Shown here: positions 13,050 to 20,894 of the stretch, in pieces | Position numbering within the stretch: position 1 is the stretch's first letter | Layout of the letters: each line of letters starts with the position of its first letter | Source of the DNA: Promethearchaeota archaeon | GTDB lineage: Archaea > Asgardarchaeota > Lokiarchaeia > Sigyniarchaeales > SOKP01 | Length of the DNA stretch: 21,092 bases | Assembly: GCA_019058015.1 (NCBI GenBank) | Contig: JAHLWH010000158.1 | Span: forward strand, 1 to 21,092 | Direction: 5' to 3' | Position numbers and translations under genes: made by a program | The notes under the pieces: generated by a model | What the model was told of the DNA's origin: nothing | Databases searched by the model: none | The model's input: the letters and a program-made list of their open reading frames with translations, nothing else

Positions 13050-13505
13050 GTGATCTTCTTGGGAAAAACCCTGAAATTTCTATTAATTGGAATTATTGCA
13101 TCAATCTCCATAACATTTTTAATTTTATTCCAGTTAGGTGTCTTTATTCCACCAAATAATAATGGTAACGGTGACAACGGACAGCTAATTATATATAAAG
13201 AGTCTGTGAGTAATATAACATTATATATAGATTATGGAAATGAAACCGTTGATATATGTGTTGGATATTCGCTTTATAATTACAACACTTCCGTTTTTCA
13301 CGCACTAGATATGTATTATGATTTAGAATATGAATATTATGCAATTTATGATGATTATTTAATTACCTCAATTAATGGAATTTCACAGAATTCAACTCAT
13401 GCTTGGCATTTTTGGGTTAATGGAGTGATAAGTCCTATTGGTTGTTATAAATATGCTTTAGACAATGATTCAATAATAAATTGGAATTTTACTACCGGTA
13501 TGTAA
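13050..13505 (+). CDS. Membrane-anchored DUF4430 / transcobalamin C-terminal-like domain protein
   Basis: N-terminal TM, Asn/Gly linker, then TL.IDYGN...SVF.AL...ITSINGI......W.FWVNG....IG...Y.L...D.I.W typical of DUF4430. Confidence 0.8.
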   Translation: MIFLGKTLKFLLIGIIASISITFLILFQLGVFIPPNNNGNGDNGQLIIYKESVSNITLYIDYGNETVDICVGYSLYNYNTSVFHALDMYYDLEYEYYAIYDDYLITSINGISQNSTHAWHFWVNGVISPIGCYKYALDNDSIINWNFTTGM

Positions 13506-13540: not shown

Positions 13541-14278
13541 TCATTTGTTTTGTGTAATATAAAAAACATATCCATAATACTCAGAATATTTCTTATACAA
13601 GGTAATTTCTTCTAGTTCCTGATCTAAAGCCTTATTGGCTTCGATATTACCTTGATACTTTTTTCGTAAGAGAGCGATACGATTTTCGAGGGGTGTATAA
13701 TATTCATCCCACCAGCCCGATTCAGGAATAATAAAATTATGTAGAAAATTATAACCTAAATTCTTTATAATCCGTATGTTTTTTTCAATCAATTTAATAC
13801 TTGGATAATATTTATTCCAGAAACCTTTTACTTCTTCTGGTGGATTCTGTTTTAGCCAAGAAAGTTCGGATATAACAAAATATCCCTTTCCTTTTAAAAA
13901 TCGGCGCCATTCTTTAAGTCCCTTTTCAAAACCAAATATGTAAATTGCTGCTTCAGACCAAATTAAGTCAAAGAAATTATCTTCAAAATCCATAGAAAAC
14001 ATTGAGTTATTAACAGTTTCAATTTTATCTTGAACACCTTCCCTTCTTGCACGTCGATTCAATTCGTCCAGAAATGGCTGATGAGTATCTAAAGCGATAA
14101 TTTTGCAATCTGCTATTTTAGCTAACTGTATAGTTTGCATACCCGGACCACACCCTATATCCAAAATGCGGGGAATAGGAGGTAATTGTTTTAAAAAAGA
14201 AAATGCTTTTTTTGTTGATTCATTATCACCTGGTCCCTCTCTCGGTAAATCCTTATGAATTTCAAAAAATATCGACAT
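13541..14278 (-). CDS. Class I SAM-dependent methyltransferase
   Basis: ILDIGCGPG motif I, FDLIWSEAAIY, LK.KGY; N-terminal LPREGPG signature. Confidence 0.9.
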   Translation of the reverse strand: MSIFFEIHKDLPREGPGDNESTKKAFSFLKQLPPIPRILDIGCGPGMQTIQLAKIADCKIIALDTHQPFLDELNRRARREGVQDKIETVNNSMFSMDFEDNFFDLIWSEAAIYIFGFEKGLKEWRRFLKGKGYFVISELSWLKQNPPEEVKGFWNKYYPSIKLIEKNIRIIKNLGYNFLHNFIIPESGWWDEYYTPLENRIALLRKKYQGNIEANKALDQELEEITLYKKYSEYYGYVFYITQNK

Positions 14279-14442
14279 AGATTTTATTAAAAATCATAAA
14301 GATTATTTAATTTTTTTAGTAAAATTTATTCAAATTTTATTATGAAATCATTTTATTTTATTAAAAACTAGCAGACTCATTCATTTTAGAAATTAAGATT
14401 TACTTAATTACTTAATTGAACTAACAAAGTAGTTAAAATAAA

Positions 14443-14640
14443 AAGGTGGATCAAAGAAATAGTATTTCTTTTAAAACCATATTGCATTGGAACAATAATA
14501 GTATTCTCTGAGGATTTCCTTCAATTGTGGAAAAGAGCTCTCATATCGAGAGAATAAAGTAGTCCAAGATGTCTATAGGCTATTGGATAGGGGCTACTGG
14601 TTTTGACCCTCATGAATAAGGCACTTTGATGCAAACTTCA
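14443..14640 (+). ncRNA. Candidate structured non-coding RNA of unknown family (four-way junction inside a closing stem)
   Basis: About 36% GC versus about 14% in the 160 nt upstream; nested helices listed in findings; G-U pairs favour the + strand; T8 tract at 14650-14657; no credible ORF. Confidence 0.55.
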
Positions 14641-14856
14641 TGTAAACAATTTTTTTTAAAATTTGTTAATAATTTTAAATAAATTCAATAAAATTGATAA
14701 CCTATCCATTTTTACTCTCTATTTGACTTTTTAAAATCGAAATTAAATAAATAATCAAGCTTCAACATAGCTTTAAACTTGATTTGGATTTTTAATATTT
14801 TATTGTTTTAACTATAGATAAATTTTATAGGTAACTTATCCTATATTAATTTGAAA

Positions 14857-15471
14857 ATGGAAAAAGAATCATTAAAATCAGATACTAAATTTAATCTATT
14901 AGACCAAGATTCGTTTAATGTAGCAATTATCAGTGTATTTTCTGCATTAACCGTGCTTGTTGGATATCTCTTGTATGCCATCCCAAATTTTGAACTTTTC
15001 AGTTTAATGTTGTTTTTTTGTGGTTTTTCTTTTGGTAAAAAAAATGGGTTTTTCATAAGTGTTATTAGTGTCACCATTTTTTGTTTTTTGAATCCTATGG
15101 GTCCCTCACATCTTTTATTATTTGCTACTCAAATATCACTCTACTCAATTTTGAGCCTTTTAGGGTTTTTTTCATTTAAATATTTGAAAAATAAAGAGTA
15201 TTTTAAGCCTACTGAAGATCTTTACGTATTAAGAGTTTTAATTTTATTTGGAGTGGTCGGCTTTTCATGGACATTCATTTATGATATAATTGCTACTATT
15301 GGGGGGTATCTTCCTTTTGTTGAATTAAGTTTTGAAGTTTGGATTCCAATTTTTATTGCAGGTATCCCATTTTCAGTTATGCATATTATTTCAAATACAT
15401 TATTATACATATTTGTGCTTCCAGCTATAATTCAAATTAGCTCAAAAATATTTAAAATTTCAGAGTTTTAA
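14857..15471 (+). CDS. ECF transporter S component, CbrT-like (predicted cobalamin/corrinoid)
   Basis: About 6 TM helices; A...AL, IPNFE...F..G..FG...G, ..Q...Y, AGIPF...HI.SN match CbrT-type S components; start at TTG 14851 or ATG 14857. Confidence 0.75.
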   Translation: MEKESLKSDTKFNLLDQDSFNVAIISVFSALTVLVGYLLYAIPNFELFSLMLFFCGFSFGKKNGFFISVISVTIFCFLNPMGPSHLLLFATQISLYSILSLLGFFSFKYLKNKEYFKPTEDLYVLRVLILFGVVGFSWTFIYDIIATIGGYLPFVELSFEVWIPIFIAGIPFSVMHIISNTLLYIFVLPAIIQISSKIFKISEF

Positions 15472-16015: not shown

Positions 16016-17500
16016 CTAAAGATTATATGTCTGCCCTTGTTTTATGTTAAAACTACGCAGTTCTTTTAATATTACTTGATCTCCATTAGATAATTTAATT
16101 TTTTTTTCTTTTAAGCTAACTACAACACCACCTTTTGTTCCAAAAGTGTCAATCACTTTATCAAAAGGGAGTTCTAATTTTTTACCTATGATTTTTTTAG
16201 CACCAGCAAGGCTTTTTGCTAAATTATTAACAATAATTCCTTGAGGATGGTTAGAATTTTTGACTATACCCTTTTTGATTTTAAATTTATGTAATTTTAG
16301 AGGGTGTTCGTATATTTCTATTATTTCTCCTACTCCTACTATTCTAAGTGTAGTTGCTGGTAGGTCTAAACGGCTGATAAGGAATTTTTCATAATTTTTA
16401 CTTTGCTTATTTTTTAAGAATACTAAATTTTTAATTAAAACTGGTTCAATTGTAGATATTATTGCGTCAAAATTAACATCATTTTCGTTTTGATTAAATG
16501 CAATGAATTTATTGTTAATTTCTTTAAATGGAAAGATATAAGCAGGAATTGTATTCATTCCTAAGGTAATATGTGTTTGTATGCCAAATTTAAAACTTGC
16601 CTTATAATACTTATTTATATAAATTTTAGATTTAAACAAATTTCCCGAAATAAAATTTTCTTTATTACTTACAACATAACAACCTCTAAAAACTGCCTTA
16701 TAATCAAGTCCTTTAATTGCGATACCAACCCTATCACCGGCTTCAGCTTTACTAACATCTTGTTTGAATATTTGGAGTGATTTAACTCGCCCAGATTTAT
16801 TTATAGGAATAATATTTAAATTTTGATTTACTTTAATTGTTCCTTGAAGAATTGTACCAGTAATTACAGTTCCAATTCCTTTAATTGGAAAATGATGATC
16901 TATTGGAATTATTAAATCATTTGATTTATTTCTTTTCACTTTGATTTTGTTTAATAAATCTAATAAACCTTTTTTTAACTTTTCAAAACCTTTTTTATTC
17001 TTTGCAGAAACTGTAAAAATTGGAACATCTGAGCCAAATGAGGTACTCTTAAAAAAGGATGTAACTTTTTCTATTATTAGATTTAATTGTTCTTTTGAAA
17101 TAAGGTCGATTTTATTCAGTGCTACAATTATGTGGTTAATACCAAGTGATTCCAATATTATTAAATGTTCTCCAGTTTGTATTTGTGGCCCATGTACTGC
17201 ATCAATTACGATAATAGCACAATCAATAATATTAATTGATGCTACAACAATCCTTATTAAATCTGCATGACCTGGTAAGTCAACCAATGTTACTAAAAAT
17301 TTTTCTAAAATTAACGAAGTAAAACCCATGTCAATGGTAATACCTCTCTCTTTACTTTGAGGATGTGCATCTATTCCAGCAGTCGATACAAATTCGCTCA
17401 AAACTTCGGCGATTGCTGTTTTACCACCATCGATATGTCCAAATAACCCTACATTAACTGAAATTTTATCTTTGATATCAAGAGTATTAACTATTGGCAT
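16016..17500 (-). CDS. selB: Selenocysteine-specific translation elongation factor (archaeal SelB / eEFSec type)
   Basis: NVGLFGHIDGGKT, STAGIDAHPQSKERGITIDMGF, DLPGHADLIR, QTGEH, NKID, DHHFPIKGIGTV.TG, RLDLPATTLRI, FGTKG; no bacterial winged-helix SECIS-binding tail; tRNA-Sec and SepSecS nearby. Confidence 0.92.
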   Translation of the reverse strand: MPIVNTLDIKDKISVNVGLFGHIDGGKTAIAEVLSEFVSTAGIDAHPQSKERGITIDMGFTSLILEKFLVTLVDLPGHADLIRIVVASINIIDCAIIVIDAVHGPQIQTGEHLIILESLGINHIIVALNKIDLISKEQLNLIIEKVTSFFKSTSFGSDVPIFTVSAKNKKGFEKLKKGLLDLLNKIKVKRNKSNDLIIPIDHHFPIKGIGTVITGTILQGTIKVNQNLNIIPINKSGRVKSLQIFKQDVSKAEAGDRVGIAIKGLDYKAVFRGCYVVSNKENFISGNLFKSKIYINKYYKASFKFGIQTHITLGMNTIPAYIFPFKEINNKFIAFNQNENDVNFDAIISTIEPVLIKNLVFLKNKQSKNYEKFLISRLDLPATTLRIVGVGEIIEIYEHPLKLHKFKIKKGIVKNSNHPQGIIVNNLAKSLAGAKKIIGKKLELPFDKVIDTFGTKGGVVVSLKEKKIKLSNGDQVILKELRSFNIKQGQTYNL

Positions 17501-20801: not shown

Positions 20802-20894
20802 GGCCTCTGACGGTTTGAGTGGTCTTAGACGCTGGACTTCAAATCCAGTTACTCTGCGAAGGAGTAGGGGTTCGATTCCCCTCGGAGGCCGCCA
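20802..20894 (+). tRNA. selC: tRNA-Sec (anticodon TCA), archaeal/eukaryotic 9/4 fold, CCA encoded
   Basis: 9-bp acceptor GGCCTCTGA/TCGGAGGCC; 7-bp D stem GTTTGAG/CTTAGAC with 4-nt loop; anticodon arm GCTGGA-CTTCAAA-TCCAGT (TCA at 20839-20841); long variable arm TACTCT/GGAGTA; 4-bp T stem GGGG-TTCGATT-CCCC; G discriminator + CCA. Confidence 0.96.

Follow-up and report, generated by a model that had tools for sequence, protein, structure and literature searches.

Gene-less mobilised omegaRNA modules are already in print: stand-alone, effector-less omegaRNAs and non-autonomous IS200/IS605 elements resembling palindrome-associated transposable elements (PATE-like) have been described (PMC10691335, PMC10055086). 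The stand-alone omegaRNAs work in trans (PMC10691335), and the PATE-like elements "often encode omegaRNAs" that are used in trans (PMC10055086). In IS607 elements, the target of the recombinase TnpA and the transposon-adjacent motif (TAM) of the nuclease TnpB coincide (10.1101/2023.11.20.567912). In the literature on Asgard or archaeal miniature inverted-repeat transposable elements (MITEs) or omegaRNA elements we found nothing specific to Asgard mini-elements. Here, we analyze a stretch of 21,092 nt from a Promethearchaeota archaeon (contig JAHLWH010000158.1 of assembly GCA_019058015.1), referred to as the window, which is contig C156 of its own assembly, G000. Positions 14273-14704 of the + strand are, with a probability of about 0.88, a miniature, protein-less IS607-family derivative that carries a TnpB omegaRNA scaffold and for which we propose a guide mechanism. 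Homology, precise presence/absence, multi-copy spread, covariation, + strand polarity and intact TnpA/TnpB partners in the genome support this reading.

The element is 432 bp long and its site is empty in two other genomes of the genus. In these, BLAST alignments join window position 14272 to 14705 with one T in between (G004:C2 and G002:C294). These loci keep the methyltransferase and energy-coupling factor (ECF) genes, with flanks 83-96% identical to the window. Contigs without the element were also found in three other metagenome runs (X10, 36,454 nt; X5, 9,724 nt; X6, one contig). They join 14271/14272 to 14703/14705 and skip 431-432 nt. Run X3, which belongs to the study of the source itself, covers the locus in its occupied form. 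Since two genomes of the same genus lack the element, its insertion is recent. The methyltransferase gene was entered at an AATAT site within its second codon, with the ECF gene adjoining. The empty sites contain AATAT too, and the left flank ends in ATAT in 6/6 G000 copies (AATAT in five, GATAT in one). By analogy with IS607 systems, AATAT is a candidate target and TAM. The sequence TATC is present at both window junctions (14270-14273 and 14703-14706), which leaves the element boundary ambiguous by up to 4 nt. In other copies, judged by eye, the two junctions have only TA in common. Between the empty sites and the predicted joint there is an indel of 1-2 nt.

Seven copies of the element were retrieved from G000 (C156, C235, C203, C45, C91, C79 and C272) by blastn and by R1, a covariance model built from A1, an alignment of 13 homologues of 14550-14704 from five genera. 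The flanks of the other six copies are unrelated to those of the window copy. Six of the seven share the right-end terminus ...GATAACCTA, and C272 carries the variant GATAACTTG. Similarity among the copies stops at the right end, and all seven diverge past the terminus into differing host flanks. From a terminus common to the copies, with unrelated sequence after it, the window copy can be seen to finish at 14704 on its right side. At the other end, window positions 14264-14366 match the left ends that precede tnpA in C45 and C203, as well as those of the deleted copies C79, C272 and C235, with 75-81% identity. A blastn search with 14260-14450 gave C79 (81% over 102 nt), C272 (80% over 70 nt), C235 (78% over 162 nt), C45 (77% over 88 nt) and C203 (75% over 88 nt). 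When the A+T-rich ends alone are used in blastn, hundreds of low-complexity matches appear, which are uninformative below about E 1e-10.

The parent elements are found in the same genome. The homologous stretch forms the 3' end of an open reading frame (ORF) in both C203 (422 aa) and C45 (429 aa), and the two ORFs carry the TnpB domains PF01385 (55-59 bits) and PF07282 (44-49 bits). Just upstream of tnpB, C45 also encodes a serine recombinase TnpA of 200 aa (PF00239, 69.7 bits). The C203 and C45 elements are IS607-type insertion sequences. As potential partners, G000 thus offers two full TnpB genes of the same subfamily (C203 and C45) and one intact TnpA (C45:1640-2239), and the TnpB of C91 is cut by the contig end. 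Inside the window element, no transposase or nuclease gene is intact, and all that is found are C-terminal pieces of TnpB with stops. The element is composed as follows, the bordering host DNA included:

14268-14272 (+): left flank AATAT, candidate TnpA target motif and candidate TnpB TAM.
14273-14341 (+): left end, homologous to the left end before tnpA in autonomous and deleted copies (blastn, alignment).
14342-14371 (+): remnant of the tnpA start, consisting of ATG, nine codons and TAG, aligned with the tnpA ATG of C45.
14372-14481 (+): A+T-rich interior, including a hairpin at 14454-14470 (alignment).
14482-14524 (+): fragment like tnpA codons 1-11 (TTG CAT ...), with a 10-nt insert, aligned with C54:682 onward.
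14525-14556 (+): probably a decayed tnpB 3' region, compared by eye with C203 and in alignments; contains hairpin H1.
14550-14704 (+): predicted omegaRNA scaffold core; joins the decayed 3' end of tnpB to the right end, with terminus ...GATAACCTA (R1 153.3 bits, E 1.4e-31).
14650-14657 (+): run of eight T (T8) inside the scaffold, 47 nt before the end of the right end, possibly an archaeal terminator that would yield a guide-less RNA.
14705-14724 (+): would-be guide in host DNA just past the right end, placed by omegaRNA geometry at the right end and by 10.1101/2023.11.20.567912, with an assumed length of 20 nt.

The remnants of both transposon genes are recognizable. TnpB residues 381-404 match window positions 14556-14621 with 54% identity, interrupted by two stops and followed by a frame shift (tblastn). 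A tblastn search of TnpA against the window returned chance-level fragments only, and the tnpA-start remnants were recognized by DNA alignment to C45 and C54 alone. In C54, the same frame as that of the fragment at 14482-14524 runs into the TnpA helix-turn-helix, with 46% identity to the C45 TnpA (residues 11-51 in both, E 3e-12). In the window, the fragment ends at TCAA (14521-14524) and there meets sequence like the tnpB 3' region, which by eye corresponds to the part past the codons for ...NADVNGA in C203. The A+T-rich interior falls into two parts. The first (14372-14435) can be aligned to G002:C371, C235 and G002:C495, and less tightly to G019:C106. The second (about 14436-14481) has a counterpart in G002:C371 and, in a looser alignment, in G019:C106, and is missing in C235 and G002:C495. 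The G+C-richer part of the element (14482-14704) comprises one tnpA fragment, the remains of the tnpB 3' region and the right end. Hammerhead, C/D-box, H/ACA and K-turn readings of CTGAGGA...GAAA, considered by eye, were rejected, as Rfam gave no match and the stretch aligns to the tnpA coding start.

The C54 copy (C54:682-880) is itself an IS607 element of G000, with a tnpA truncated after about 65 codons and an apparently complete tnpB starting at C54:1004. It shows a stepwise decay of tnpA in this IS607 family. A second, more distant gene-less family in G000 is about 355 bp long and has six copies (C110:5895-6247, C226, C251, C237, C38 and C267). Its right part matches the 3' end of another TnpB (C105:7593-8798, 404 aa), which is 45% identical to the C203 TnpB. 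The family shares with the window element the module of tnpA codons 1-11 plus H1, has no R1 match at E 0.001, and its left-end interior is weakly similar to the interior 14372-14481.

The TnpB of C203 (L009:941-2206) has unusual catalytic features. It carries R-K where Cas12f-type structures have the RuvC-II E-D, and a Glu precedes the first zinc-finger position by six residues (VDESYTSKC). This matches the "C-terminally shifted glutamate" that has been reported for TnpBs of IS607 and for Fanzors (10.1101/2023.08.09.552727). Its RuvC-I motif is DFG rather than DPG, and the zinc-finger cysteines are mostly missing.

Covariation supports a conserved RNA structure in the scaffold core. RNAalifold on A1 gave 31 pairs, 15 of them with compensatory changes. 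For the named helices Pa, Pc, Pd, Pe and Pf (29 pairs), 93.6% of the A1 cells are paired, 14/29 pairs show compensatory changes, and none of 500 shuffles was as good. Slid controls had 31-50% of cells paired on A1 and 31-53% over all alignments tested, with 0/500 shuffles reaching the observed value. Two larger alignments, both fitted to R1 and hence leaning towards it, gave similar figures: 89.9% paired with 20/32 compensatory pairs for the 39 copies of A3, and 91.1% with 22/32 for the 22 tnpB-linked sequences of A4, which come from named Asgard and other metagenome-assembled genomes (MAGs). These are the helices, together with two further hairpins:

Pa, 14562-14567/14583-14588 (+): 97.4% paired and 2/6 pairs compensatory in A1, 95.7% paired in 39 sequences; 6/6 pairs canonical in the window.
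Pc, 14591-14596/14604-14609 (+): 5/6 compensatory in A1; 5/6 canonical in the window.
Pd, 14611-14616/14637-14642 (+): encloses Pe; 3/6 compensatory in A1; all canonical in the window.
Pe, 14621-14623/14630-14632 (+): 1/3 compensatory in A1; all canonical in the window.
Pf, 14656-14663/14681-14688 (+): A-U-rich and the weakest of the six scaffold helices; 87.5% paired and 3/8 compensatory in A1; 6/8 canonical in the window.
H1, 14538-14542/14548-14552 (+): hairpin with loop ATATC; 94% paired and 3/5 compensatory in 10 sequences; also in the minimum free energy (MFE) fold.
Interior hairpin, 14487-14491/14507-14511 (+): fully paired (100%) in 10 sequences; the only changes are wobbles.

The window copy keeps 29 of the 32 model pairs, and the six tnpB-linked copies keep 29-32. 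The polarity is set as + by G-U pairs, which are frequent on that strand (in A3, for example, GU:23/AU:14 and GU:22/GC:12/AU:5). In all 17 close tnpB loci whose 3' flank is complete, the R1 scaffold covers roughly the final 130 nt of tnpB and extends about 28 nt beyond the gene. These loci belong to Promethearchaeota/Promethearchaeia, Borrarchaeum and Hodarchaeota MAGs, and their TnpBs are 58-91% identical. Likewise, C203 and C45 have their scaffolds where tnpB ends, in the same orientation as the gene, and these scaffolds stop at the right end. On the grounds of position, homology and covariation, 14550-14704 is a predicted TnpB omegaRNA/reRNA scaffold of six local helices. One relative, L017 (G019:C106), has an extra 49-nt insert between H1 and Pa, which can form a hairpin CATGAA...TTCATG, and is otherwise collinear.

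An earlier note on this DNA, made from the letters alone, had proposed here a structured RNA with a four-way junction, upstream of a CbrT-like ECF transporter gene. That a conserved element of structured-RNA type is present was borne out by the covariation in homologues, and the note's + strand reading agrees with the G-U pairs. All seven strand pairs that it quoted lie where it had placed them and are complementary, and no ORF of 40 aa or more is found on either strand of 14279-14840, in line with its remark that the region has no good ORF. The fold itself did not hold. On five homologues, the 44 pairs of the four-way junction are 78.4% paired, with 3/44 compensatory, and 220 of 500 shuffles were as good. 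The helix GTAGTCC/GGGCTAC is 79.1% paired on 13 sequences, with 58/500 shuffles as good. For TTTCC/GGAAA, with 80% pairing and no covariation, the data point neither way. Four helices of the junction, namely its closing and inner stems, TATTCTC/GAGAATA and GTAGTCC/GGGCTAC, use bases of Pa, Pc, Pe or H1, and cannot coexist with those covariation-supported hairpins. A pairing suggested between TTGGA (14487-14491) and TCCAA (14563-14567) also gives way, since the real partner of TCCAA is TTGGA at 14583-14587. The base counts behind the "GC island" seen by the note are exact (71/200 in 14441-14640, 22/160 in 14281-14440), but with 35.5% G+C the island exceeds the mean of the window, 30.2% (6370/21092), only by a modest margin.

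The scaffold is patchily distributed. R1 found 39 copies in 7 of 41 related genomes: 7 in G000, 7 in G002, 17 in G007, 5 in G019, and one each in G014, G021 and G016. No scaffold copy was found by R1 in three genomes of the same genus (G001, G003 and G004). A full-length TnpB lies upstream of six copies and is lacking from 30, and three could not be judged because of a contig end. Among the 36 assessable copies, those without tnpB thus outnumber the tnpB-linked ones five to one. Nor do the homologues stay 5' of ECF or DUF4430 genes, a point the earlier note had proposed to check, among the 39 copies examined.

For the window copy, we propose the following course of events. TnpA of the autonomous copy C45 would move the element in trans. 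A transcript starting from the left end would read through the scaffold into the flanking host DNA, and TnpB of C45 or C203 would bind the scaffold. With the flank (14705 onward) as guide, TnpB would then cut the empty site, that is AATAT plus target, and recombination would restore the element. Such a course has been described for PATE-like elements and stand-alone omegaRNAs (PMC10055086, PMC10691335) and for IS607 (10.1101/2023.11.20.567912). In reverse complement, the would-be guide reads as the native ATG and ribosome-binding region that the insertion displaced from the methyltransferase gene.

The main competitor of a mobile guide-RNA module is a dead relic, for which we see somewhat less than an even chance. 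According to this explanation, the element is a decayed IS607 deletion derivative, whose scaffold looks folded because it is young or inherited, and which has no working guide, only the disrupted 5' end of the methyltransferase gene. Several observations weigh against a functional module, and most of them favor the relic. The first concern the window copy. The T8 tract that the earlier note had reported is present, at 14650-14657, between the last G+C-rich helix and the guide. It is found in the window copy only, the other 38 of the 39 copies having T5 or shorter there. Oligo-T runs can terminate archaeal transcription, and this one could end the transcript early, so that the window copy may be impaired by it. 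The left-end promoter was recognized by eye, and its TATA-like motif has a G where other copies have a T.

The remaining observations concern the RNA and its relatives. The folding energy is unremarkable: the + strand of 14440-14660 has an MFE of -47.1 kcal/mol, compared to -42.8 +/- 4.2 for dinucleotide shuffles (z -1.04, 27/200 as good), and the - strand has z -1.72. No Rfam family covers the scaffold RNA, hence no curated omegaRNA model stands behind the name. Copies without tnpB persist in G007 (17 copies) and G019 (five copies), where they keep 23-30 of the 32 pairs. Weaker scaffold copies keep just 23-27. In these two genomes (98% and 100% complete, respectively), no full-length TnpB closer than 46% identity was found. 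Furthermore, in the 17 tnpB-less G007 copies, paired and unpaired sites differ from the consensus equally (0.116 vs 0.121 per site), and of 60 one-sided changes, 36 break the pair. Selection on the fold is thus not evident once tnpB is lost, and the scaffold covariation may be inherited from tnpB-linked ancestors.

The relic explanation has its own difficulties. Two-sided changes in the G007 copies keep the pair in 24 of 33 cases, a count that shared descent may inflate. The window copy, despite a TnpB frame with two stops and a shift, keeps as many pairs as the lowest tnpB-linked copies. Its genome also encodes one cognate TnpA and two cognate TnpBs, and the insertion is recent, as seen from its absence in two genomes of the genus.

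A second explanation starts from the same orphan scaffolds of G007 and G019. They could be served by a distantly related TnpB through guide sharing across families, or their RNA could have a TnpB-independent role in the host or in transposition. We consider this unlikely.

It is highly improbable that the locus is a host-encoded, stand-alone Asgard non-coding RNA gene with a cellular function and a four-way junction. Such a gene would fit a conserved, covarying sequence without ORF. However, the sequence is patchy and multi-copy, with 1-17 copies in each of the seven genomes and none found in three of the four other genomes of the genus. Each of its ends matches a transposon end, and the four-way junction does not covary. 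The idea of a stand-alone RNA survives solely in the form of a stand-alone transposon guide-RNA module. What the earlier note had named as a case against its own reading, a decayed protein gene or MITE, is what was found: a decayed TnpB C-terminus with stops lies within a MITE-like element, whose ends match IS607-type elements. Its statement that no known RNA consensus is recognizable stands, as Rfam has no match at the site. At gathering score, the sole Rfam match in the window is a tRNA-Sec, outside the element. A permissive scan of 14350-14750 (E up to 10) gave four chance-level matches, the best with 21.3 bits against a gathering score of 90, and ARAGORN found no tRNA or tmRNA at the site.

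Least probable of all is a cis riboswitch or attenuator by which corrinoid controls the downstream CbrT-like transporter: its position 146 nt upstream of the ECF S-component ORF on the same strand, the nearby DUF4430 gene (13050-13505) and the conserved, structured RNA-type sequence would suit it, yet it is refuted by the empty sites, for the whole 432 bp are missing from the orthologous spacer in G004, G002 and the contigs of three runs, which keep the ECF gene and its promoter motif, the other six G000 copies have unrelated flanks, neither the cobalamin nor any other riboswitch family of Rfam matches, and the ECF Pfam match is itself below threshold (24.6 vs 30.7 bits). The link to corrinoid uptake therefore falls with the mobility of the insertion.

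The neighborhood records the insertion. The S-adenosylmethionine-dependent methyltransferase gene (13541-14278, - strand) was hit in codon 2, and its native start and ribosome-binding region are now 432 bp away, at 14705-14725 (-). The left-end terminus (14273-14278) gives a new in-frame ATG, so that the ORF reads MSIFFEIH... instead of the (TTG)EIFFEIH... of the empty-site genomes. On the other side, the ECF S-component ORF (14851-15471) has a listed TTG start, and its designation as "CbrT-like" corresponds to the sub-threshold match to PF12822 (24.6 bits, cut-off 30.7). The motif resembling a B recognition element and TATA box that the earlier note had seen upstream of it is present, one base off its position there, at 14738-14750. 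This CGAAATTA... motif is kept in the genomes with an empty site, which makes it the ECF gene's own promoter, outside the element, just as the note had suggested. Further along the window lie the tRNA-Sec (20802-20890, 60.1 bits) and an archaeal SelB-type elongation factor (PF21440) at 16016-17500 (-), which together indicate that the organism uses selenocysteine. A TnpB relative in G002 (G002:C498) has a single in-frame TGA.

These results remove a false lead, as there is no new archaeal riboswitch or corrinoid-sensing RNA at this site. They add a well-delimited, IS607-derived mini-element with guide RNA only, and with exact empty sites, in Promethearchaeia-type Asgard archaea, as well as a covariation-backed fold for an omegaRNA family without an Rfam model. 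Gene-less copies dominate the family, and knowing them helps in annotating A+T-rich Asgard genomes, where G+C-richer islands pass for cellular RNA genes. The family could also be useful for mining compact TnpB-guide pairs. Knowledge of how such systems work is unchanged.

Compared with known systems, the element has a single likeness to the cobalamin riboswitch of Rfam, its position upstream of a putative corrinoid-related transporter gene. It differs in having no Rfam match, in being mobile and in not being conserved at the orthologous locus. The stand-alone omegaRNAs and PATE-like elements are much closer. Like them, it is gene-less and multi-copy, has the left and right ends of a transposon and a guide scaffold at the right end, and shares its genome with copies that bear the effector and could provide TnpB and TnpA in trans. 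Unlike the PATE-like IS200/IS605 elements, its parent is of the IS607 type, with a serine recombinase rather than a Y1/IS605 transposase. It lacks subterminal DNA palindromes, so that both "PATE" and "MITE" are loose labels for it. Its Asgard host, with about 30% G+C, and its recognizable remnants of the tnpA start and the tnpB end also set it apart from the stand-alone omegaRNAs and PATE-like elements. From the Clostridium botulinum IStron, it differs in having no group I intron, and a candidate motif that is A+T-rich (AATAT) instead of TGGG. The cognate TnpB is without the canonical RuvC-II glutamate, and the window copy is without any tnpB. In its architecture, nevertheless, it follows the C. 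botulinum IS607/IStron elements (10.1101/2023.11.20.567912): the parent encodes a serine TnpA and a TnpB, the scaffold overlaps with the end of tnpB and reaches no further than the right end, and the motif on the left flank would be both insertion target and TAM, for which AATAT is the candidate here. As in the IStron, the last scaffold bases resemble the target motif (here ...CCTA vs AATA/TAT, by eye).

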